Below are positions 2,912-51,674 of a stretch of 64,000 bases of DNA, in pieces. The translations under genes were made by a program, and so were the position numbers. Source of the DNA: Flavobacteriaceae bacterium (lineage in GTDB: Bacteria; Bacteroidota; Bacteroidia; Flavobacteriales; Flavobacteriaceae); contig JAFMLE010000007.1 in assembly GCA_017852395.1 (NCBI GenBank), positions 16,101 to 80,100 on the forward strand, read 5' to 3'. How positions within the stretch are numbered: the stretch's first letter is position 1; every line of letters starts with the position of its first letter. The notes beneath the pieces are model-generated. The model saw only the letters and a list, made by a program, of their open reading frames with translations. It was not told where the DNA came from and ran no database searches.

Positions 2912-3014
2912 TATAAATTGCTTTGTGGTCGGATTTGACGAAGAACGGTCTCAAAGCAATACTGCTTTAGCATTTTTTATCGAGGTTGCAATCAGTCAAA
3001 TCCTTCCTCGTTGA
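2912..3014 (-). promoter_or_regulatory. structured 5' leader of metK-metY-metX, candidate SAM-responsive riboswitch (class unresolved)
   Basis: The leader is about 100 nt, running from the -7 box to the metK AUG. On the minus strand, CGAGG (3010-3006) pairs with CCUCG (2985-2981). GGAUUUGAC in the enclosed loop (3003-2995) is perfectly complementary to GUCAAAUCC (2939-2931), which lies 20 nt upstream of the AUG, so the topology is an H-type pseudoknot. There is also a hairpin AAAGCA-GUAU-UGCUUU (2968-2953). The motifs AUCAACGAGG, GCAACC and UGCUAAA recall conserved SAM-I elements, but there is no full match by eye. Confidence 0.35.
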
Positions 3015-3020
3015 TGGGTA

Positions 3021-3830: not shown

Positions 3831-6209
3831 TTATTCTTTGATGATGGTCACTTGTGCATCGGCAACTTGATCCAATTTTGCAACCACCTCTTCTTCGGTA
3901 CCTTCAATAACGACCTCTGTATTGGTCGTTACGCCATCTTTAGAAGTTTCTGTAGTTGTTACTACGGCTTTCATCATACCTTCTTGAGCTGTAGCATCTA
4001 CCTCAACTGAAATTTGTTTATGATTGGCATGCATGGCATCACCGGTATCATGGTGACCGCCTAAAATCGGTGCAATTACCAAACCAACCAAACAGGTAAG
4101 TTTTATTAAAATATTCATTGACGGGCCAGAAGTATCTTTGAATGGATCTCCTACGGTGTCTCCAGTTACGGCTGCTTTATGTGCATCAGAACCTTTGTAG
4201 GTCATTTCGCCATTGATTTCTACACCAGCCTCAAAGGATTTTTTTGCATTGTCCCATGCTCCGCCAGCGTTGTTTTGAAAGATTGCCCATATAACTCCAG
4301 AAACGGTAACACCAGCCATATAACTTCCTAGCGCCTCTGCACCCATTACAAATCCAATGATCACAGGGGTAATGATGGTAATCAATCCTGGGACGATCAT
4401 TTCTTTTAATGCCGCTTTGGTAGAAATATCGACACATTTTCCATACTCAGGAGTACCTTCTCCTTCCATAATGCCCTTGATTTCTCTAAATTGACGGCGT
4501 ACTTCTTCAACCATTTCCATCGCAGCACGGCCAACAGCCTTCATTGCCAAAGCCGAAAAAACGACAGGAATCATTCCTCCAATAAAAAGAGCAGCGAGTA
4601 CATCGGCTTTAAAAATATTGATGCCATCAATACCAGTAAATGTCACATAGGCTGCAAAAAGTGCTAGTGCTGTTAGTGCCGCAGAAGCAATTGCAAATCC
4701 TTTACCCACCGCGGCGGTTGTATTACCTACCGAGTCTAAAATATCAGTGCGTTCACGGACTTCGTCTGGCAATTCACTCATTTCAGCGACACCACCTGCA
4801 TTGTCAGCAATGGGGCCAAAGGCATCGATTGCCAATTGCATGGCTGTAGTGGCCATCATGGCAGAAGCAGCAATAGCTACCCCATAGAATCCCGCCAAGG
4901 TATATGAACCCCAAATGGCAACCGCAAAAAGAATAATTGAACTTGCCGTAGAAATCATCCCAGTTGCTAGACCGGCAATAATGTTGGTTGCTGCACCTGT
5001 TGAAGAATTTTTAACAATATCTAAAACCGGTTTTTTACCTAAAGCAGTATAGTATTCTGTAAAATAAGAAATCAAATAGCCCACAGAAAGCCCAACGAGT
5101 GTTGCATAGAAAACATTTAATGAACTGATGTCGTGGGTTCCTTCACCAAAAAATCGCATTCCTACAATGGTTTCAGGAAGCATCCATTGGATTAAAAAGT
5201 ATCCAGCGACTGCCGTAATAAGAATAGAAGTAATATTTCCCGTATTTAGTGCACGTTGCACCTCCGCTTCTTTAGCATTATTATCAGATATACGAATCAA
5301 AAATGTGCCGATAATCGATGCGATAATTCCTACACCTGCTATGATCAGCGGTAAAAGAATGGGCCCCATGCCATTGAACGCATCCGAAAATTGGGTGCCC
5401 GTTGCGTCGGTCATGTCTTTGATGATATAATTACCCAATACCATAGAAGCCAAAACAGTAGCTACATAACTACCAAAAAGATCGGCTCCCATACCTGCAA
5501 CATCACCTACATTGTCTCCTACGTTGTCTGCAATAGTAGCAGGGTTGCGTGGATCGTCTTCAGGAATTCCTGCTTCTACCTTTCCGACCAAATCAGCACC
5601 TACATCAGCTGCCTTGGTGTAGATACCCCCACCAACGCGTGCAAAAAGTGCAATAGATTCGGCTCCTAAAGAAAAGCCTGCGAGGGCTTCAAGAACAATT
5701 GTCATGTTGTTGTAAAAGCTTCCGCTTTCGACCATAAACATGTTGATGAAAAGCAAAAAGAATAAGGAAAGTCCCAATACTGCAAGACCTGCAACACCGA
5801 GTCCCATAACTGTTCCGCCACCAAAAGAAACTTGAAGTGCTTTTGGAAGACTCTCACGAGCTGCTTGGGTTGTTCTTGAGTTAGATTCTGTTGCGATGCG
5901 CATTCCGATATTTCCAGCTAACGCAGAAAAAATAGCTCCAACAACAAAAGCTGGTATAATCATGATGCTGGTTGTTTCAACGGCATTTGCGATTAGAAAT
6001 AAAGCTACTGATGCCAATACGACAAATACGACCAACAGTCGGTATTCGGCATTGAGAAAAGCTAGTGCACCTTCTTTGATGCTTTTGGAGATGCTTTGCA
6101 TTTTTTCATTTCCTGCATCTTGCTTTCTTACCCAGCTGGCACGTATTAGCATATATACCAGTCCAATAATGGACAGTGCAATAGGGATCATTATAATATT
6201 CGCTTCCAT
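3831..6209 (-). CDS. hppA: membrane-integral (K+-dependent type) cation-translocating pyrophosphatase with a 76-aa C-terminal tail
   Basis: 792 aa. Contains [18 protein letters not shown] and [13 protein letters not shown]; the Ala in GNTTAA is the K+-dependent signature. It is multi-TM throughout. Confidence 0.95.
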
Positions 6210-17529: not shown

Positions 17530-18549
17530 TTACTTGGTTCTTACCTGGCTGACAATACTGGCCTGAAAGTCTTTGTCGTTTTCAAGAATGTCATAGAAAC
17601 TCTCAATATACTTCTGGGTTTCTTTAAATTCTTTTTCACTTTCAAAATCTCCAGCCATAGCGGCTACGATGTCCATCAGTTTTTGTTTGTTTGTCAAAAA
17701 CTGACTCCGCACACCATTGAGCACCTCATCATCTCTTTTGAAGCCTCTATATTTTCGGTCTTTTACGGAGGTGATCCCCAAGGTAGTGTTGACGGTAGCA
17801 TAGCTTGCGTCGACCAATCCTGACATGTCAAAATCATAAGGAAGCGGAATAATTTTTTTGTCGATATAGAGCAATTTTCCGTTGTGCTGATAGGCCGTAG
17901 AAAAATCGGTATTGCCAATCATAAATTGAAAAAAAGCATTCTGAGCAGAACTCTCCGCATCCATTGCCAAAGGATGAATAAAGCGTTCGAGCACCTGACC
18001 TTCAAAGCGGTCAGCAACTAAGTCATCGTCTTCAATAAGAAATCCTTCGAGGCTGTGTTCCTTTATTTTTTTGCCCTTTTCTTCTTCGAAGGTAATTTTG
18101 ACCCTACGCGTTTTAAAATGGTAGGGCGAGATTACCTCATATAACTTGTAGGCCATATATTCTTGTAGAATATTATCATTATTGTTGGATTCTATTTTAC
18201 AAGGCAAAACCAATTTCAAGCTCTTATTACCTTCAAAAAGGGTGTTTTTGGCATTGGATTTTTTAACTTTCATTTTCACAGGTGGAAAATAACATTCGGC
18301 ACGACGAAAGTTACCTCGTGCTCGCAGCGAAACAGGAAGCACCTCCCAGTTGCCGTTGTATTTGTACTGCATTTCAGTATCTATAAAAGTACTGTCATTC
18401 GTGTCTTTTCGCAATTCTTTGTTTGAATAGCTTAGCTTGATTTCAAGTGGCGTCATGTCTTGAAACAATAAACTAACTTTTTGGTCTCCCTGTGCCTGGG
18501 TCTGAAAACCAAACAAAAGAAGGAATAGAAAGATTACTTGTTTTTTCAT
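17530..18549 (-). CDS. secreted protein, CotH-like (atypical kinase fold) candidate
   Basis: 339 aa with a signal peptide. RARGNFRR and QHNGKLLYIDKKIIPLPYDFDMSG resemble the CotH RGNSS and HNYYLY...PWDxDxSFG motifs. Recognised by eye only. Confidence 0.4.
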   Translation of the reverse strand: MKKQVIFLFLLLFGFQTQAQGDQKVSLLFQDMTPLEIKLSYSNKELRKDTNDSTFIDTEMQYKYNGNWEVLPVSLRARGNFRRAECYFPPVKMKVKKSNAKNTLFEGNKSLKLVLPCKIESNNNDNILQEYMAYKLYEVISPYHFKTRRVKITFEEEKGKKIKEHSLEGFLIEDDDLVADRFEGQVLERFIHPLAMDAESSAQNAFFQFMIGNTDFSTAYQHNGKLLYIDKKIIPLPYDFDMSGLVDASYATVNTTLGITSVKDRKYRGFKRDDEVLNGVRSQFLTNKQKLMDIVAAMAGDFESEKEFKETQKYIESFYDILENDKDFQASIVSQVRTK

Positions 18550-18592: not shown

Positions 18593-19345
18593 TTGAAAAG
18601 TTATTTCTCCATAATCAACCAACGTACGCTAATTACACTAATTATTTCAGTGATTGTGCCGTTTGTGTTTTACGAATTCGAGATTATTTACAACGTAGAT
18701 CTCACTCTCATTAGTATTGCGATAATATTTCCTTTGGTATTTACCATCAGGGGGGCTTTTCGACGTCGCGAAAAAGGGATGGAACATTTGAGCAGATTGC
18801 GCAGCGGCCTAAAAGTCATTCATTATTTGCTCAATGACGGCAATAAAATGAGCGACGATTTAAAAGCGGAGGGCAACAAGATCCTCGAAAGCATTTGCGA
18901 CAATTTTATGGACTATTTGAAAAGTCCACACGAAGATACCCGCCAAATTGATGCTGATTTAAATGACTTTTATGAATACATCCAACGAAATGTAGAATAT
19001 TTATCGGGTGGAACCCGTCAAAAAATATATCGCTTTTTGAGAGACGTACATGAAGGGCAGGAAAACTTGATTGCTATTCATACCCACAGAACCCCAATAA
19101 GCCTCAAGGCCTATTGTTTGATTTTCATTTATATTTTTCCATTAATCTACACTCCAACACTGATCAACAAAATTGGATTTGAAAAATCTGAAAGTGAATG
19201 GATCACATTCTTTGTAGTGATTATTAGCGAATTTATATTGATTTCCTTATATAACATTCAGGACCATATGGAACATCCGTTTGATGAAGAAGGCTTGGAT
19301 GATATCAAACTCAGTAATTTCAAAATCAATCGAACAGGTATATAA
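18593..19345 (+). CDS. bestrophin/UPF0187-like membrane protein (short form)
   Basis: 250 aa from a TTG start. PLVFTIRGAFRRRE follows TM2 and EHPFDEEGLDDI lies near the C-terminus, resembling bacterial bestrophin homologs. The start codon is uncertain. Confidence 0.4.
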   Translation: MKSYFSIINQRTLITLIISVIVPFVFYEFEIIYNVDLTLISIAIIFPLVFTIRGAFRRREKGMEHLSRLRSGLKVIHYLLNDGNKMSDDLKAEGNKILESICDNFMDYLKSPHEDTRQIDADLNDFYEYIQRNVEYLSGGTRQKIYRFLRDVHEGQENLIAIHTHRTPISLKAYCLIFIYIFPLIYTPTLINKIGFEKSESEWITFFVVIISEFILISLYNIQDHMEHPFDEEGLDDIKLSNFKINRTGI

Positions 19346-19383
19346 ATATTGAAACAAATTTTGTTTTTTAATATTTCTAAAAC

Positions 19384-19391
19384 TACATTTG
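19384..19391 (+). promoter_or_regulatory. -7 promoter box TACATTTG for the pheA leader
   Basis: Exact TAnnTTTG, 8 nt upstream of the leader-peptide ATG. This implies a nearly leaderless transcript. Confidence 0.4.
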
Positions 19392-19399
19392 CTTTTATT

Positions 19400-19474
19400 A
19401 TGAATCAGATAACATTGTTTTACGATCGTTTTTTCTACTTCTATTATCCAATAGAGGCAGTCAGGACTTTGTAG
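19400..19474 (+). CDS. Phe/Tyr-rich leader peptide MNQITLFYDRFFYFYYPIEAVRTL (24 aa)
   Basis: Hand translation: ATG AAT CAG ATA ACA TTG TTT TAC GAT CGT TTT TTC TAC TTC TAT TAT CCA ATA GAG GCA GTC AGG ACT TTG TAG. Eight of ten consecutive codons (7-16) encode Phe or Tyr. It lies directly upstream of the terminator and pheA. Confidence 0.65.
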   Translation: MNQITLFYDRFFYFYYPIEAVRTL

Positions 19475-19498
19475 AACAACTACGTATAATATAAAATG

Positions 19499-19525
19499 GT
19501 CCTGATTTATCAGGACTTTTTTTTT
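19499..19525 (+). terminator. attenuator terminator upstream of pheA (competing antiterminator arm at 19461-19467)
   Basis: GTCCTGA-TTTA-TCAGGAC followed by nine T, ending 3 nt before the pheA ATG. An identical TCAGGAC at 19461-19467 can pair with the same GTCCTGA arm instead. Confidence 0.7.
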
Positions 19526-19528
19526 GAA

Positions 19529-20350
19529 ATGAAAAAAATAGGAATTCAGGGTATAAAAGGATCTTTTCATGATCAGGTGGCACAATCGGTGTTTGATATG
19601 GCTAGCCATCAGATTGTGGAGTATATGTCCTTCGATAGCCTCACAAAAGGGTTGATCCGAGAGGATATTGATCTAGCAATAATGGCCATTGAAAACTCCA
19701 TCGCGGGCTCAATCTTGCCCAACTATGCGCTTCTTGACCGAAATAATCTTTCGATTATCAAAGAACATTTTCTTCAAATCAATCACCATTTGATGGCGCT
19801 ACCAGGACAAAGTTTGACGGCTATACGAGAAGTCCATTCGCACCCTATGGCCCTACTCCAGTGTGCACAATTTTTTGATGCCTATCCAGAAATTAGACTG
19901 GTAGAAGCTGAAGACACGGCCTTGGTTGCTCAAAAAATCCAGACGGAAAAACTTTCTGGGATCGCTGCTATCGCAGGAAAAGGTGCGGCTGAGATATACC
20001 AACTCGATGTATTGGCCCCGCAAATACAAACCATTAAAAACAACGTAACCCGTTTTGTGATTGTCTCAAAAAAACCGGTGCCTTTAGCCCCCGAATTCAA
20101 TAAAGCAGCACTAAAATTTACCTTAGACCATCAAAGGGGCAGTTTGGCCACCGTACTCAATGTAATGAGTGATTGCCAATTGAACCTTACCAAAATACAA
20201 TCCCTACCCGTTATCGAAACTCCAGGCAAATACGCCTTTTTTGTCGATGTCACTTTTGAAAATATAGAGCAGTACAAAAAGGCTAAATCGATCCTCGAGA
20301 TTATGGCACAACAGTTTAAAGTATTGGGCGTTTACCAAAAAGAAAACTAA
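19529..20350 (+). CDS. pheA: prephenate dehydratase
   Basis: I use the internal ATG at 19529; the track starts at 19496, inside the attenuator. Contains IQGIKGSFH, TRFVIVS and a C-terminal ACT-like domain. Length 273 aa. Confidence 0.9.
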   Translation: MKKIGIQGIKGSFHDQVAQSVFDMASHQIVEYMSFDSLTKGLIREDIDLAIMAIENSIAGSILPNYALLDRNNLSIIKEHFLQINHHLMALPGQSLTAIREVHSHPMALLQCAQFFDAYPEIRLVEAEDTALVAQKIQTEKLSGIAAIAGKGAAEIYQLDVLAPQIQTIKNNVTRFVIVSKKPVPLAPEFNKAALKFTLDHQRGSLATVLNVMSDCQLNLTKIQSLPVIETPGKYAFFVDVTFENIEQYKKAKSILEIMAQQFKVLGVYQKEN

Positions 20351-21501
20351 TGAATCTTCAAATCGCCAATAGGTTACAAACCGTAGAAGAATACTACTTT
20401 TCTAAAAAGTTACGAGAGGTAGGACAACGCATTGCATCTGGACAACCCATTATCAATATGGGCATTGGCAGTCCTGATTTGGCGCCAGACCGTGAAGTAC
20501 TCAATGCACTTACATCGAGTTTAACACATCCCAAGGCCCACCAATACCAAAGCTACCAAGGGCTCCCAGAACTTCGTGAAGGCATCGCAGATTTTTACCA
20601 TACCCACTATGGTGTGACGCTAAATCCCAAAGATGAGATTTTGCCACTTATGGGATCTAAGGAGGGTATTATGCACATTTCTATGGCGTTTCTCAACCCA
20701 GGCGACCAGGTTTTGATTCCAAATCCAGGATACCCCACCTACAGCGCAGTAACGCGCTTGGTTTCGGCAGAAGCCGTTTATTATAAACTTGAGGAATCTA
20801 CAGGTTGGCTACCCGACCGCCATTTTCTCGAACAACTCGACACCTCAAAAATCAAACTCATGTGGCTCAACTACCCCCATATGCCAACGGGGGCGGCTGC
20901 ATCTAAGGAACTCTTTATCGCGCTGGTACAATGGGCCAAACAAAACAATATTCTATTGGTCAATGACAATCCGTATAGCTTTGTCCTTAACCAAAACCCC
21001 ACCTCTTTGTTAGCCACTCCAGGTGCAAAAGAAGTGGCACTCGAACTCAACTCATTGAGTAAAACGTTCAATATGGCCGGTTGGCGCGTTGGAATGGTTT
21101 TGGGTAATGCCGCATTGATCAATCCCGTTTTAAAAGTCAAAAGCAATATGGACTCGGGTATGTTTTATGGTTTGCAAAAAGGAGCCATCGCCGCTTTACA
21201 ATCCTCAGAAAACTGGTACCAATCAATGAATGAAATCTATGCCAATCGAAAAAAACGCATGCTCCAGCTCATTGATCAATTAGAACTCACCTATAACCCG
21301 GATCAAACAGGCATGTTTGTTTGGGCCAAATTGCCAAAACAATACACCTCCTCCGAGGCCTATGTAGATAATCTTCTCAACGAAAAACACCTATTTATTG
21401 CTCCAGGAACCATTTTTGGATCTCAAGGTGAAGGCTATGTGCGTTTTTCATTATGTGTAGAAGAAGAAATGATTATTAAAGCAATAGAACGATTTGTATG
21501 A
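20350..21501 (+). CDS. class I/II PLP aminotransferase (aromatic/prephenate aminotransferase candidate)
   Basis: 383 aa. Contains NSLSKTFNMAGWRVG (PLP lysine). Sits between pheA and tyrA. Confidence 0.85.
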   Translation: MNLQIANRLQTVEEYYFSKKLREVGQRIASGQPIINMGIGSPDLAPDREVLNALTSSLTHPKAHQYQSYQGLPELREGIADFYHTHYGVTLNPKDEILPLMGSKEGIMHISMAFLNPGDQVLIPNPGYPTYSAVTRLVSAEAVYYKLEESTGWLPDRHFLEQLDTSKIKLMWLNYPHMPTGAAASKELFIALVQWAKQNNILLVNDNPYSFVLNQNPTSLLATPGAKEVALELNSLSKTFNMAGWRVGMVLGNAALINPVLKVKSNMDSGMFYGLQKGAIAALQSSENWYQSMNEIYANRKKRMLQLIDQLELTYNPDQTGMFVWAKLPKQYTSSEAYVDNLLNEKHLFIAPGTIFGSQGEGYVRFSLCVEEEMIIKAIERFV

Positions 21502-22370
21502 AAATAGGTGTTGTCGGTTTGGGATTAATAGGGGGTTCGTTTGCAATTCATGCGCGAAAACACTTTGCCAATGCACAACTTTTGGGAAGTGACCATAACA
21601 AAACCCATCAAGAGCAAGCCCTATCTCTTGGTCTTATTGATGGCGTTCTGTCGTCTGAAGATTATAACGATCTAGAACTGCTGTTATTGGCCATACCGGT
21701 AGATGCCATAGAACAGCACCTGACACAGTTTTTAGACCAAATTGGTCCTAAGGGACTAATTATCGATTTTGGCTCGACCAAAGCAGCCATCTGTCAGCAA
21801 GTTGCCAACCATCCAAAGCGGAAGCAGTTTCTTGCTACACACCCCATTGCCGGAACCGAGTTTTCGGGGCCAACTGCTGCCTTTGAAAGCCTATATTTCA
21901 AAAAAACTCAGATCCTTTGTGAGACTGAAAAAACAAATCCAGAATTGTTATTGCTTGCCAAAACATGGTTTGAAGCCATGCAAATGGAATTGCGCGAAAT
22001 GGATCCTGTTGAACACGACAGACACATTGCTTATGTTTCACATCTGTCACACATCAGCTCCTTTATGCTCGGCAAAACCGTTTTGGAAAAAGAAAAAGAT
22101 CAATCTACCATTTTTGACATGGCAGGTAGTGGATTCGAATCCACCGTTCGACTGGCCAAAAGCTCGCCAGATATGTGGACACCAATCTTTAAAATCAACA
22201 AGAACTTTGTATTAGAAAGCCTAAACGACTACATTCGCAACCTCAAAATATTTAAAGCTGCAATGGAGCGTGATGATTTTGAAGTTCTTTATCAAGAGAT
22301 GAAACAAATCAACCGAATAAAAACCATACTAAAAGGAATTACCGATAAAAACAATACTTATGGAAAATAA
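21498..22370 (+). CDS. tyrA: prephenate dehydrogenase
   Basis: 290 aa. Has an N-terminal GVVGLGLIGGSFA dinucleotide fold and HPIAGTE. The start overlaps the upstream stop. Confidence 0.9.
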   Translation: MKIGVVGLGLIGGSFAIHARKHFANAQLLGSDHNKTHQEQALSLGLIDGVLSSEDYNDLELLLLAIPVDAIEQHLTQFLDQIGPKGLIIDFGSTKAAICQQVANHPKRKQFLATHPIAGTEFSGPTAAFESLYFKKTQILCETEKTNPELLLLAKTWFEAMQMELREMDPVEHDRHIAYVSHLSHISSFMLGKTVLEKEKDQSTIFDMAGSGFESTVRLAKSSPDMWTPIFKINKNFVLESLNDYIRNLKIFKAAMERDDFEVLYQEMKQINRIKTILKGITDKNNTYGK

Positions 22371-23442
22371 CAAAGAAATGCGCCAGTGGCTCGATGCTTT
22401 TGGTCTTAGCCATCCGCTGGTCATTGCAGGACCTTGCAGCGCAGAAACCGAAGAACAAGTACTCAAAATTGCGCACGAACTCAAGGACACCGATGTCACA
22501 GTATATCGTGCCGGAATCTGGAAACCCCGTACACGACCCGGAATGTTCGAAGGGGTTGGAGCCATAGGCCTTAAATGGTTGCAACGGGTCAAGAAAGAAA
22601 CCGGGCTGCTTACTGCCACAGAAGTCGCCAACAAGGATCATGTCAAATTAGCTTTGGACCACGATATAGACATTCTATGGATCGGCGCCCGATCAACGGT
22701 AAGTCCATTTATCGTTCAAGAAATTGCAGATGCCCTAGAAGGAACCGACAAAATTGTTTTGGTTAAAAACCCCGTAAACCCCGATGTTGCACTTTGGCTC
22801 GGAGGCGTTGAGCGATTATATTCTGCCAACATCAAAAAACTGGGATTGATACACCGAGGGTTTTCTACCTACGAAAAGTCAAAATACCGCAATAACCCAG
22901 AATGGCAAATTGCTGTAGAGGTGCAAAATCGTTTCCCCGATCTACCCCTAATTTGTGACCCTTCGCACATTACCGGAAACCGATCAATGATTTTTGATAC
23001 CTGTCAGATGGCATTGGATCTAAATTTTGATGGCCTTATGGTAGAAAGTCATTGGGACCCGGACAATGCATGGAGTGATGCCGCTCAACAGGTAACCCCT
23101 TCCAATTTGGTACAAATCATGAAAGATCTAAAAATTAGAAAAACCACTACCGAAGAAGAAAGCTATCAAGCAGAACTGCAAAATCTTCGAACCCAAATCG
23201 ACGTCGCTGACCAAACGATTTTAGATACTTTGGGCAAAAGAATGAAAGTCTCCGAAGCCATCGGTAGACTTAAGAAAGAGAACAATGTGGCTGTCTTGCA
23301 AAGCAAACGTTGGAATGAAATTTTGGGAAGAATGGTTCTCGAAGGTGAAGAACGTGGATTATCTGAAGAGTTTATCCTACGTCTGTTTAAAGCCATTCAC
23401 CAAGAATCCATTAACCATCAAGAACAGATCGTTAACAAGTAA
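22360..23442 (+). CDS. bifunctional 3-deoxy-7-phosphoheptulonate synthase (type I-beta) / chorismate mutase
   Basis: 360 aa. Contains AGPCSAE, IGARS and CDPSH motifs, plus a C-terminal chorismate mutase helix bundle (LRTQIDVADQTILDTLGKRMKVSEAIGRLK). Confidence 0.9.
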   Translation: MENNKEMRQWLDAFGLSHPLVIAGPCSAETEEQVLKIAHELKDTDVTVYRAGIWKPRTRPGMFEGVGAIGLKWLQRVKKETGLLTATEVANKDHVKLALDHDIDILWIGARSTVSPFIVQEIADALEGTDKIVLVKNPVNPDVALWLGGVERLYSANIKKLGLIHRGFSTYEKSKYRNNPEWQIAVEVQNRFPDLPLICDPSHITGNRSMIFDTCQMALDLNFDGLMVESHWDPDNAWSDAAQQVTPSNLVQIMKDLKIRKTTTEEESYQAELQNLRTQIDVADQTILDTLGKRMKVSEAIGRLKKENNVAVLQSKRWNEILGRMVLEGEERGLSEEFILRLFKAIHQESINHQEQIVNK

Positions 23443-23445
23443 AAA

Positions 23446-23475
23446 TAAAAAAACCGGCCAAGGCCGGTTTTTTTA
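23446..23475. terminator. bidirectional intrinsic terminator
   Basis: AAAAACCGG-CCAAGG-CCGGTTTTT between convergent genes. Confidence 0.75.
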
Positions 23476-23491
23476 TAGGATATTGCTTCAT

Positions 23492-24676
23492 TTATTGTAG
23501 CGCTTTTGCCATTCTACCCAGAGCCTCTTTAATTTGAGCTTCTGAGGCAGCATATGAGATTCTTAAGCAATCTGGTGCTCCAAAAGCAACACCACTTACC
23601 GTTGCTACGTGCGCTTGTTCGAGTAAAAATAAAGCAAAGTCGTCCGCATCTTTTATTGTGTGCTCTTGAATTGTTTTTCCAAAATAATAAGACACATCTG
23701 GAAAAACATAAAAGGCTCCCATCGGTTCATTGACTTTTAGCCCAGGAATTTGACGTAGCAAACCAATAATAAGTGTGCGTCTTTTTTCAAACTCATCCAC
23801 CATATACTGGATCGCACTTACTGGTGCTTCTAAAGCGGCGATGGTCGCGCGTTGTGCAATACAATTTGCGCCACTGGTGATTTGCCCCTGCATTTTATTG
23901 CAAGCTTTTGCGATCCATTGTGGTGCTCCGATATAACCAATTCGCCAGCCGGTCATTGCAAAAGCTTTGGCCACACCATTTACAGTAATGGTACGGTCGT
24001 ACATGCTTTCTATGGCAGCAAAACTAAACGGTTTTTCTCCATAATTGATATGTTCGTAGATTTCGTCAGAAAGTATGAATATGTCTGGATACTTTTCTAA
24101 AACAGCGGCAAGCGCTCGAAATTCGGCCTCGGTATAGATCGTACCGCTGGGATTGTTTGGCGAATTGAACATGACCAATTTGGTCTTGGGCGTGATGGCG
24201 GCCTCCAACTGTTCAGGTGTGATTTTAAAGTCGTTTTCGATCGTAGAGGGAATGATGATCGCGTTGGCCTCGGCCAAGGTTGCTATTGCAGAATAGCTGA
24301 CCCAATAGGGTGCAGGTAACAATACCTCATCGCCTGGATTAAGCAATACCATAGCAACATTGGCAATCGATTGCTTGGCTCCCGTAGAAACAACAATCTG
24401 ATTGGGCTGGTAAGACAGGTTATTGTCTCGTTTAAATTTGGTACAAATAGCTTGTTTCAACTCGACATATCCATCAACTGGGGTATAGGAGTTATAATTA
24501 TCTTCAATCGCTTGTATGGCTGCCGCTTTGATAAATTCGGGAGTATTAAAATCAGGCTCTCCCAAACTCAATCCAATAACGTCGACTCCTTGGTCTTTGA
24601 GTTCTCTTGCTTTGGCAGCCATTGCCAAGGTGGCAGAAATGGGCAAGCTGTTAATTCGATCAGATAAGTGTTCCAT
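23492..24676 (-). CDS. aspartate/aromatic class I aminotransferase
   Basis: 394 aa. Contains NGVAKAFAMTGWRIGY (PLP lysine) and NNPSGT. Confidence 0.85.
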   Translation of the reverse strand: MEHLSDRINSLPISATLAMAAKARELKDQGVDVIGLSLGEPDFNTPEFIKAAAIQAIEDNYNSYTPVDGYVELKQAICTKFKRDNNLSYQPNQIVVSTGAKQSIANVAMVLLNPGDEVLLPAPYWVSYSAIATLAEANAIIIPSTIENDFKITPEQLEAAITPKTKLVMFNSPNNPSGTIYTEAEFRALAAVLEKYPDIFILSDEIYEHINYGEKPFSFAAIESMYDRTITVNGVAKAFAMTGWRIGYIGAPQWIAKACNKMQGQITSGANCIAQRATIAALEAPVSAIQYMVDEFEKRRTLIIGLLRQIPGLKVNEPMGAFYVFPDVSYYFGKTIQEHTIKDADDFALFLLEQAHVATVSGVAFGAPDCLRISYAASEAQIKEALGRMAKALQ

Positions 24677-39612: not shown

Positions 39613-39694
39613 TGCGGGTGAAGGGACTCGAACCCCCACGCCGTGAAGCACTAGATCCTAAGTCTAGCGTGTCTACCAATTTCACCACACCCGC
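39613..39694 (-). tRNA. tRNA-Leu (anticodon UAG), type II with long variable arm
   Basis: Reverse complement: GCGGGTGTGGTGAAATTGGTAGACACGCTAGACTTAGGATCTAGTGCTTCACGGCGTGGGGGTTCGAGTCCCTTCACCCGCA. Acceptor stem is GCGGGTG/CACCCGC. Anticodon stem is CTAGA/TCTAG with loop CTTAGGA. T-loop is TTCGAGT. Confidence 0.9.
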
Positions 39695-51599: not shown

Positions 51600-51674
51600 T
51601 GGGCGCGAAGGGATTCGAACCCCTGACCCCCTGGGTGTAAACCAGGTGCTCTGAACCAACTGAGCTACGCGCCC
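51600..51674 (-). tRNA. tRNA-Val (anticodon UAC)
   Basis: Reverse complement: GGGCGCGTAGCTCAGTTGGTTCAGAGCACCTGGTTTACACCCAGGGGGTCAGGGGTTCGAATCCCTTCGCGCCCA. Acceptor stem is GGGCGCG/CGCGCCC. Anticodon loop is TTTACAC. T-loop is TTCGAAT. Confidence 0.92.

Follow-up and report, generated by a model that had tools for sequence, protein, structure and literature searches.

A phenylalanine- and tyrosine-rich leader with the architecture of a ribosome-mediated attenuator precedes pheA in Flavobacteriaceae

Introduction

What controls the pheA operon of an uncultured Flavobacteriaceae bacterium, where a short ORF rich in phenylalanine and tyrosine codons and a hairpin followed by a run of T stand between the promoter and the first gene? 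The locus lies in a 64,000-nucleotide stretch of contig JAFMLE010000007.1 (assembly GCA_017852395.1), referred to here as the window. A first-pass annotation, made from the letters of this DNA, read the locus as a ribosome-mediated attenuator that responds to both amino acids and considered it worth documenting. The E. coli pheL and trp-type attenuators form a 1:2 helix, a 2:3 antiterminator, and a 3:4 terminator, and the choice between them is kinetic. Vitreschak and colleagues reportedly predicted attenuators in Bacteroidetes/Chlorobi in a 2004 FEMS Microbiol Lett article. Naville and Gautheret (2010) make no mention of pheA or Bacteroidetes, and a B. thetaiotaomicron transcriptome paper treats leader-like sORFs in general terms only. 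We conclude that the element is very probably a classical ribosome-mediated leader-peptide transcription attenuator of the pheA operon. Coordinates are window positions, and the features are on the forward strand unless noted.

Results

The leader ORF and its promoter

The elements of the leader were read from the DNA. A -7 box, TACATTTG (19384-19391; consensus TAnnTTTG), is spaced 8 nt from the ATG (19400) of a leader ORF of 24 codons plus UAG (19400-19474) that encodes MNQITLFYDRFFYFYYPIEAVRTL. TTTG at 19360-19363 is a candidate -33 element of a Bacteroidota sigma-A promoter by consensus match and is 20 nt upstream of the -7 box. The leader has this -33/-7 promoter type and no Shine-Dalgarno sequence. 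Codons 7-16 (19418-19447) read F Y D R F F Y F Y Y. These four Phe and four Tyr codons within ten are the putative sensor codons and the proposed stall site. The heptamer TCAGGAC is found at 19461-19467 and 19510-19516, its complement GTCCTGA is at 19499-19505, and nine T follow at 19517-19525. The first-pass annotation had placed correctly all the elements that it named, except that it put the stop codon (UAG, 19472-19474) 5 nt past the upstream TCAGGAC; the true gap is 4 nt (19468-19471).

Both strands of the window together hold 1066 ORFs that start with ATG and are 10-60 codons long. Of these the leader ORF ranks first in F+Y density (8/10 codons), the next ORF scores 6, and all others score 5 or less. 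A search across the window for a second amino-acid-rich leader ORF gave no credible other attenuator. The 135-nt leader folds with an energy of -34.5 kcal/mol compared to -19.4 ± 3.3 kcal/mol for dinucleotide shuffles (z = -4.55), and 0/200 shuffles were equally good.

The controlled operon

Pfam matches bear out the operon content given in the first-pass annotation. The first gene is pheA (19529-20350), encoding prephenate dehydratase with an ACT domain, and it is followed by genes for a class I/II aminotransferase (20350-21501), prephenate dehydrogenase (tyrA, 21498-22370), and a DAHP synthase-chorismate mutase fusion (22360-23442). Neighbouring genes overlap or abut, and their order is identical in L001, one of the closest relatives by PheA. 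Joint sensing of Phe and Tyr, through four codons each, would be in keeping with the operon's role in making Tyr and the common-pathway enzymes as well. The pheA start at 19529 agrees with the amino termini of homologues, and its ATG is 3 nt past the T-run. One metagenome annotation puts the pheA start at an ATG inside the terminator, and in practice the element corrects such gene calls. A hairpin flanked by A- and T-runs (23445-23476, no strand assigned) lies between convergent genes and is likely a bidirectional terminator at the operon end. The gene 5' of the leader (18593-19345) is on the same strand. The leader hairpin was also considered as the terminator of this upstream gene and was ruled out; a conserved promoter box and a conserved ORF intervene.

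Alternative RNA helices

Four regions of the leader RNA account for three helices. Region 1 (19415-19445), identified in the MFE and centroid folds, overlaps the aromatic codons and forms the 5' strand of a 1:2 helix. Region 2 (19450-19479), identified from the folds and covariation, forms the 3' strand and includes the leader stop codon. The core of region 2, AGUCAGGACU (19459-19468), is the antiterminator arm, defined by its pairing with region 3. Folds and covariation both delimit region 3, GGUCCUGAUU (19498-19507), which is at once the antiterminator partner of region 2 and the 5' arm of the terminator, and region 4, UCAGGACU (19510-19517), which is the terminator 3' arm. Eight base pairs make up the terminator stem (19498-19505 with 19510-19517). 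The antiterminator pairing reaches 10 bp (19459-19468 with 19498-19507), longer than the heptamer of the first-pass annotation, which also missed the classical 1:2 helix. This helix lies within 19415-19479, is part of the window MFE, and at -21.2 kcal/mol is accompanied by energies of -13.3 kcal/mol for the 2:3 helix and -10.6 kcal/mol for the terminator. In the stalled-ribosome state of the window leader, the antiterminator (-13.8 kcal/mol) and the terminator (-14.7 kcal/mol) are nearly iso-energetic, consistent with a choice made kinetically, region 4 being the last to be synthesized. As the first-pass annotation proposed, the terminator and antiterminator are mutually exclusive; the antiterminator uses the 5' arm of the terminator.

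Conservation across Flavobacteriaceae

Eighty Flavobacteriaceae genome loci were retrieved through PheA, giving n = 81 with the window. The genera sampled include Flavobacterium, Winogradskyella, Tenacibaculum, Gelidibacter, and Flagellimonas, together with marine MAGs. Metagenome contigs that carry the two closest PheA relatives (L001-L003) end inside the leader; of the close sequences, only L004 and the 3' half of L001 were usable. In 80/80 relatives a homologous leader ORF, rich in F/Y and 15-27 codons long, lies 5' of pheA, and a hairpin with a T-run lies between this ORF and pheA in the same 80/80. The T-run directly after the hairpin is at least 5 long in 81/81 loci, with U-run lengths of 5-11. 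An nhmmer profile built from 77 relatives, with the window excluded, matches 19415-19524 (E = 1.6e-8) as the only significant match in the 64 kb, and it matches the published Flavobacterium psychrophilum pheA leader with E = 5.7e-14. The F. johnsoniae pheA leader ORF is of the MASNRFYFSNNFYFFFSRS type.

Family-wide, F makes up 21.8% and Y 14.9% of the leader-peptide residues, and 30 of the 81 leaders also have a Trp codon. The aromatic cluster is kept across the family and the other residues, the carboxy terminus, and the length (15-27 aa) vary, which points to the codons rather than the peptide as the signal. The ORF shows synonymous and compensatory variation across the 81 loci. The position of its stop codon shifts by >30 nt, the extremes being just ahead of region 2 and 27 nt beyond the region 2 start. 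The geometry is consistent with a stalled ribosome that leaves region 2 exposed: in all loci region 2 begins 8-15 nt past the last aromatic codon, just beyond the ribosome footprint.

Covariation and ribosome-constrained folds

Of the alignment cells, 98.9% pair in the terminator, where 5/8 base pairs have compensatory changes on both sides. Its covariation score is 0.384 compared to 0.04-0.16 when the partners are slid. The antiterminator was less clear by MAFFT columns. Some clades have region 2 aligned out of register, which holds the paired share at 57.5% of cells, about the same as at slides of -1 and -2; on this alignment the covariation score alone peaks at slide 0. Alignment-free duplex energies and a cross-class matrix were used in place of the column-based test. 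Region 2 paired with its own region 3 has a mean duplex energy of -11.6 kcal/mol; a region 3 from another terminator class gives -6.7 ± 2.7 kcal/mol, and shuffled sequences give -5.2 ± 2.0 kcal/mol. In a 5 x 5 matrix of terminator classes, each row minimum is on the diagonal; these classes track clades, and the independent compensatory events are few, about 5. Matched region 3/region 2 classes include GTCCTG/AGGAC, GTCTCG/CGAGAC, ATCCTG/AGGATTGT, GTCCCG/CGGGAC, and ATCCCG/GGGATTG. Both the 3:4 and the 2:3 pairings covary.

Folding was constrained by placing the ribosome at two positions, an approach that had been proposed with the first-pass annotation together with an alignment of pheA upstream regions. 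With the ribosome at the last F/Y codon, the 2:3 antiterminator forms in 80/81 sequences. Moving the ribosome to the stop codon leaves region 3 without a partner, free for the terminator, in 79/81. Both states gave the predicted outcomes, and the ORF, terminator, and antiterminator are present in 81/81 loci. The terminator is present in the full-length MFE of 81/81 sequences. RNAalifold on the MAFFT alignment recovered the terminator and not the 1:2 or 2:3 helices. The 1:2 helix, though strong in the window, is in the MFE of only 33/81 sequences, and thus conservation may not extend to the anti-antiterminator step.

A described homologue in Flavobacterium psychrophilum

This element is known from earlier work: a homologous pheA leader-peptide attenuation element, THC0290_N_0195, was reported in F. 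psychrophilum by Guerin et al. (2021, ISME Commun, PMC9723704, Table S7 and SI Appendix D9). They mapped its transcription start, described terminator and antiterminator hairpins, and found that its 5' region is transcribed as a separate 171-nt segment whose expression profile differs from that of pheA (PMC9723704). Read-through is condition-specific, operon expression is maximal in minimal-nutrient media, and the element is kept in other Flavobacteriaceae genera and has no Rfam family (PMC9723704). The element that the first-pass annotation rated as worth documenting is real and not new: its homologue had been published by Guerin et al. Partial experimental support for the mechanism comes from this homologue only.

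The F. psychrophilum element is likewise located 5' of pheA and an aminotransferase gene and has an aromatic-rich short ORF (MNTNNTFYSNNSFYFYWNIGRDCYMVI), region 2 (GGGATTGT), region 3 (ACAATCCCG), and region 4 with a U-run. The window leader differs in having 24 aa and no Trp codon, a stop codon just after region 2 rather than 16-24 nt beyond it, and a predicted 5' UTR of ~4 nt rather than 20 nt. In the window the pheA AUG is 3 nt past the T-run, and tyrA and DAHP synthase-chorismate mutase can be seen to belong to the operon, in a single string of overlapping genes.

Proposed mechanism

The conservation in 81/81 loci, the covariation of antiterminator and terminator, and the ribosome-constrained folds support the ribosome-mediated attenuation first proposed for this locus. 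For the window organism we infer where transcription starts, that it terminates early, that ribosomes stall, and that amino-acid supply sets the outcome, as follows. Transcription would begin ~4 nt 5' of the leader AUG, and a ribosome would translate the 24-codon leader as RNA polymerase moves on. When Phe and Tyr are plentiful, charged tRNA-Phe and tRNA-Tyr would be abundant and the ribosome would reach the UAG at 19472-19474. There it would cover the region 2 arm (19459-19468) and leave region 3 (19498-19507) free for region 4 (19510-19517), and the 3:4 hairpin with its nine U would end transcription 3 nt before pheA. When Phe or Tyr is scarce, a ribosome stalled within 19418-19447 would melt the 1:2 helix and stop short of 19459. 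Region 2 would then pair with region 3 once region 3 emerges, the terminator would not form, and transcription would read through into the operon. If the leader were not translated, the 1:2 helix (-21 kcal/mol) would sequester region 2 and the terminator would form.

Alternative explanations

The hairpin might instead act mainly on translation by blocking the A/U-rich pheA start region, with the leader ribosome toggling access to it in place of, or besides, termination. Bacteroidota ribosomes that work without Shine-Dalgarno sequences need an unstructured A/U-rich start region. The pheA AUG is 0-5 nt past the T-run in the window and in several relatives (for example, L006, L041, and L063), and region 4 is single-stranded in the antiterminated conformation. 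However, across the family the PheA match begins anywhere from 2 to ~105 nt past the T-run, and with such variable spacing occlusion of the start site cannot be what is conserved. Intrinsic termination has as its hallmark a stem followed by 5-11 U, found here in 81/81 loci, and the F. psychrophilum 5' region is a separate transcribed segment with a profile unlike that of pheA. These data make control of translation improbable as the main function.

That separate segment in F. psychrophilum (Guerin et al.) would also suit a terminated leader RNA or short ORF product that acts in trans as a small RNA or small protein, the F/Y richness then reflecting peptide function. PMC6614838 and PMC7298713 provide a precedent in peTrpL and rnTrpL of Sinorhizobium. 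However, the peptide sequence outside the aromatic cluster is unconserved, as are the peptide length (15-27 aa) and carboxy terminus, and the stop codon shifts by >30 nt; what is conserved is the codon content, the spacing to region 2, and the RNA pairings. We therefore regard action in trans as very improbable. Even less credence is due to an assembly of unrelated parts, either the upstream gene's terminator combined with an accidental ORF in AT-rich DNA or a riboswitch that binds a ligand or protein. T-rich codons are common where G+C is low (~30% in the leader region, taken over the Rfam-match stretch, versus 42% in the whole window), and the upstream gene at 18593-19345 does read in the same direction. 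Against these points, the -7 box lies between that gene and the ORF, and the ORF is extreme among 1066 small ORFs and kept in 81/81 loci. Apart from the sub-threshold Phe_leader match, no riboswitch, T-box, or other Rfam 15 family gave anything credible in 18800-20000 at E up to 10, and the leaders of 7 relatives matched no family at E up to 0.1. Conservation has effectively refuted a chance origin already.

The predicted transcription start

The transcription start is predicted at 19396 from the position of the box in F. psychrophilum, where the -7 box sits at -12 to -5 (Guerin et al. 2021, PMC9723704). This geometry predicts a 5' UTR of ~4 nt for the window transcript, and the "nearly leaderless" description in the first-pass annotation plausibly fits such a length. 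The very short predicted 5' UTR is the sole unusual feature of the element. A TAnnTT[TAC]G box lies 5-32 nt 5' of the leader ATG in nearly all of the 81 loci, and in ~10/81 genomes, including the marine uncultured MED-G11 and AG-912 SAGs, the -7 box is only 5-9 nt from the leader AUG. These distances suggest, tentatively and with the balance tipped slightly against it, that the sensing ORF is leaderless or nearly so (5' UTR of 0-4 nt) in the window lineage and in these ~10/81 genomes, as the first such case in Bacteroidota, and that the family acts as an aromatic OR-gate.

Discussion

The element reveals no new mechanism. It resembles the E. coli pheA leader (pheL) in its short ORF rich in the regulated amino acid, its alternative antiterminator and terminator helices (in the window leader also a predicted 1:2 helix), and a stop codon at which a terminating ribosome would cover region 2. 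It differs in that the window element would sense Phe and Tyr together, uses a Bacteroidota -33/-7 promoter, and has no Shine-Dalgarno sequence. The Rfam model of the gammaproteobacterial pheL, Phe_leader (RF01859), scores 28.5 bits (E = 0.024) in the window, below its gathering score of 55, and this score is driven by the AUG region and the terminator; it has no match in the leaders of 7 relatives at E up to 0.1. The Bacteroid-trp leader (RF01692; Weinberg et al. 2010, PMC2864571) is also a leader-peptide cis-regulator of an aromatic operon in Bacteroidota, but it belongs to the trpE operon, uses Trp codons, and is a separate RNA family; the Rfam scan found no match to it in the window pheA leader. 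A scan of the whole window at gathering thresholds returned SAM-II and two tRNAs only, all elsewhere in the window. No Rfam family covers the element.

The leaderless polycysteine sORFs of mycobacteria are described as attenuators of operonic gene expression (bioRxiv 10.1101/834739). Their sensing ORF is at or next to the transcript 5' end, as is predicted for the one in the window; the phylum and the amino acid are different, and the leaderless state in the window is a prediction.

These results make classical leader-peptide attenuation of aromatic amino-acid biosynthesis very probable throughout the Flavobacteriaceae. The family comprises abundant marine and freshwater heterotrophs that do not use Shine-Dalgarno initiation. 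The 81-genome set, with its three-way covariation of regions 2, 3, and 4, could seed an Rfam family. Across the set the same sensor ORF is preceded by a natural series of 5' UTR lengths, from ~0 to ~27 nt as deduced from box positions, and this series could be used to study ribosome loading in Bacteroidota on very short leaders. If the family is an OR-gate, two or three aromatic amino acids would be sensed, Phe and Tyr and also Trp in 30/81. If the near-leaderless reading is true, the 5' end of the transcript would itself govern ribosome loading, and the pioneer ribosome would be tightly coupled to RNA polymerase in a phylum that lacks Shine-Dalgarno initiation.

Leader, promoter, and operon organization

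The pheA leader was read on the forward strand between 19100 and 19700. A Bacteroidota-type −7 box, TACATTTG (19384–19391), has TTTG 20 nt upstream (19360–19363), and a 24-codon leader ORF, MNQITLFYDRFFYFYYPIEAVRTL, runs from ATG 19400 to a stop codon at 19472–19474. Codons 7–16 (19418–19447) contain four Phe and four Tyr. TCAGGAC is present in two copies (19461–19467 and 19510–19516), GTCCTGA is at 19499–19505, and nine T (19517–19525) precede the pheA ATG at 19529. The box, ORF, Phe/Tyr codons, heptamers, and T-run listed by the first-pass annotation are thus present, and an independent scan recovered its terminator before pheA as an 8-bp stem (19498–19517, +) with the T-run after it.

The leader is followed by overlapping genes that Pfam identifies as prephenate dehydratase with an ACT domain, class I/II aminotransferase, prephenate dehydrogenase, and DAHP synthase fused to chorismate mutase. 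The terminator scan also found a 14-bp hairpin at the operon end (23445–23476), with an A-run on one side and a T-run on the other. It lies between the convergent DAHP synthase-chorismate mutase gene and an aminotransferase gene (23492–24676, −), and is probably a bidirectional terminator. The metagenome gene call for pheA, P0001 (284 aa; 19496–20350, +), starts at ATG 19496 just upstream of the leader terminator, so its reading frame crosses the hairpin. The N-termini of homologues (consensus xxKxIAIQG) point to 19529 as the true start (273 aa). Two ORFs directly upstream of the leader, 18593–19345 (+; 250 aa) and 17530–18549 (−; 339 aa), had no Pfam or NCBIfam match.

The sigma-A box of Flavobacterium psychrophilum, TAnnTTTG, is located at −12 to −5 (Guerin et al. 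2021, PMC9723704), and the pheA promoter sequence and TSS in that study are consistent with this placement. By analogy, +1 in the window is predicted at about 19396, which would leave about 4 nt of 5′ UTR and make the leader ORF nearly leaderless. The box-to-AUG spacing is 5–32 nt across 81 loci (80 relatives and the window), and very short spacing is common to about ten, mostly from uncultured marine lineages. In F. psychrophilum a minority of mRNAs, 5.5%, are leaderless (PMC9723704), and a preprint on mycobacteria documents sensing ORFs of this type there (bioRxiv 10.1101/834739).

Alternative structures of the leader

The leader ORF has the highest Phe+Tyr density (8/10) of 1066 ATG-started ORFs of 10–60 codons on both strands of the window; the second has 6 and all others ≤5. 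The MFE of the 135-nt leader is −34.5 kcal/mol compared to −19.4 ± 3.3 kcal/mol for dinucleotide shuffles (z = −4.55). The leader features are not due to chance.

The MFE and centroid folds contain, alongside the terminator, a long helix between the aromatic codons (region 1, 19415–19445) and region 2 (19450–19479), which alone is worth −21.2 kcal/mol. Both the leader stop codon and the antiterminator arm lie in its 3′ strand, and in these models the helix corresponds to the 1:2 helix of a classical attenuator. The antiterminator pairs AGUCAGGACU (19459–19468) with region 3, GGUCCUGAUU (19498–19507), over 10 bp counting G-U pairs; region 3 alternatively pairs with region 4 (19510–19517) in the terminator. 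The first-pass annotation had the terminator and antiterminator right, missed the 1:2 helix, and confined the antiterminator to a heptamer, which is too short. As closed structures, the antiterminator and terminator have energies of −13.3 and −10.6 kcal/mol. When a ribosome covers the RNA as far as 19457, the two states are nearly iso-energetic (−13.8 and −14.7 kcal/mol), as would be expected if the switch is decided kinetically, region 4 being the last to be transcribed. When the nascent leader is folded with no ribosome on it, its 5′ end, UGAAUCAG (19401–19408), pairs with CUGAUUUA (19502–19509), the end of region 3 and the loop; this pairing could link the start-codon region with the terminator arm.

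Conservation among Flavobacteriaceae

Homologues of PheA number in the thousands. Among those with a name, the nearest are from Flavobacteriaceae (about 65% identity), which assigns the window to an uncultured member of the family. One genome per species was scanned with a PheA alignment, yielding 80 Flavobacteriaceae loci. All 80 have a leader ORF of 15–27 codons upstream of pheA, with 4–9 (usually 7–8) Phe/Tyr per 10-codon window, and a terminator hairpin (−9 to −16 kcal/mol) with 5–11 T after it. Representative leader ORFs are those of Flavobacterium (MSNNRFYFSNTYYFFFRK), Winogradskyella (MNTSKTYYNWFYFFYNKRNEA), and Flagellimonas (MTKTYFWNGFYFYFFFKRVTGLF). A Trp codon lies inside the aromatic cluster at 30 of the 81 loci (L010, L012, L022, L025, L051, L055, and others; e.g. 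YYNWFYFFF and YFWNGFYFYFFF) and is absent from the window's leader. These sequences suggest sensing of all three aromatic amino acids in some lineages.

Metagenome contigs L002–L004 come from essentially the same organism as the window (PheA 99% identical). Their leader has one difference, C to T at 19438. The codon (TAC to TAT) still encodes Tyr, and in the inner 1:2 hairpin U-G replaces a C-G pair, so that both coding and pairing are preserved. The 79%-identical relative L001 keeps AGGCAGGACTTTGTAA ... GAGTCCTGA-TGCA-TCAGGAC-T9, and its operon has the same four genes. Three independent contigs with the closest PheA end inside the leader (L001 1–73, L002 1–62, L003 1–63; window about 19434–19460), L002 and L003 within or beside the Phe/Tyr codon run and L001 at region 2. 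These breaks may arise from low complexity or from polymorphism among strains, of which TAC/TAT at 19438 is an example.

Region 2 starts 8–15 nt past the last aromatic codon in all genomes. The position of the stop codon varies, from shortly ahead of region 2 to as much as 27 nt beyond its start, and neither peptide length nor the residues outside the aromatic cluster are conserved. Codon content and spacing, rather than the peptide, are therefore what is constrained. Nascent transcripts up to the terminator loop were folded with a ribosome placed on the leader (81 sequences). The 2:3 pairing forms in 80/81 with the ribosome at the last Phe/Tyr codon, and region 3 is unpaired in 79/81 with the ribosome on the stop codon. 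The terminator is in the full-length MFE of 81/81 and the 1:2 helix in only 33/81; the 1:2 step is thus shown for the window, not established for the family.

Covariation of regions 2, 3, and 4

In a MAFFT alignment of 78 distinct sequences, terminator positions pair in 98.9% of cells, both sides have changed in five of the eight pairs, and the covariation score (0.384) is well over every slid control. Because region 2 is partly out of register in this alignment, its column count for the antiterminator is blurred, and an alignment-free test was used: the best duplex between the 5′ arm of a genome's terminator and the stretch that follows the last aromatic codon in the same genome. The mean duplex energy was −11.6 kcal/mol with the genome's own region 3, compared to −6.7 ± 2.7 kcal/mol with region 3 of genomes having another terminator core and −5.2 ± 2.0 kcal/mol with shuffled region 2. 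Fewer than 5% of foreign partners match the own partner's energy in 67/81 genomes. Genomes were grouped by terminator core (GTCCTG, GTCTCG, ATCCTG, GTCCCG, and ATCCCG). The diagonal of the 5 × 5 energy matrix holds each row minimum, and the region 2 cores, in the same order, are AGGAC, CGAGAC/CGAGGC, AGGATTGT, CGGGAC, and GGGATTG. These data show that regions 2, 3, and 4 change together. The classes largely follow clades, indicating a handful of independent events rather than dozens. Judged from these sequences, region 2 would have no reason to track the terminator other than 2:3 pairing.

Relation to described elements

Guerin et al. (2021, ISME Commun, PMC9723704) mapped TSSs and transcribed regions in F. 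psychrophilum, and their SI Appendix D9 gives putative terminator/anti-terminator hairpins for the pheA leader element. The same appendix reports that read-through occurs in particular conditions and that expression peaks in minimal-nutrient media. With the window left out, 77 relatives gave an nhmmer profile that matches that published sequence (E = 5.7e-14) and window 19415–19524 (E = 1.6e-8), its only significant match in 64 kb. The window element thus belongs to a family that had been described before. No Rfam 15 model covers this family: the leader gave only the gammaproteobacterial Phe_leader at 28.5 bits, under the 55-bit threshold, and seven relatives' leaders gave no match at E up to 0.1. 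The trp operon of Bacteroidota is also under leader-peptide control (Bacteroid-trp, RF01692).

Elsewhere in the window, a SAM-II riboswitch (RF01726, 75.8 bits; 2957–3015, −) lies immediately upstream of metK (SAM synthetase; 1655–2911, −), followed by a Cys/Met-metabolism PLP enzyme gene (387–1658, −); F. psychrophilum has the same riboswitch-metK pairing (Guerin et al., PMC9723704). Rfam also found two tRNA genes (39613–39694, −; 51600–51674, −). In L036, a Flavobacterium sp. locus, a Flavo-1 RNA motif (RF01705, 75.6 bits; 5120–5197, +) about 2 kb 3′ of pheA is unrelated to the leader.

Interpretation

The element is very probably a classical 1:2/2:3/3:4 leader-peptide transcription attenuator sensing Phe and Tyr. 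The first-pass annotation had proposed ribosome-mediated attenuation with the upstream pairing as antiterminator and had called for alignment of relatives' pheA upstream regions; that alignment, the 2:3/3:4 covariation, and the geometry of the constrained folds all support its reading. The hairpin might also hinder pheA initiation on read-through transcripts, since the AUG is only 3 nt past the T-run in the window, but this spacing is not conserved across loci, and such translational control is ranked as a minor rival to attenuation. Little here is new, because the element joins a family described in 2021. Its value rests on the family-wide covariation evidence, the absence of an Rfam model, and a sensor ORF that may be leaderless.
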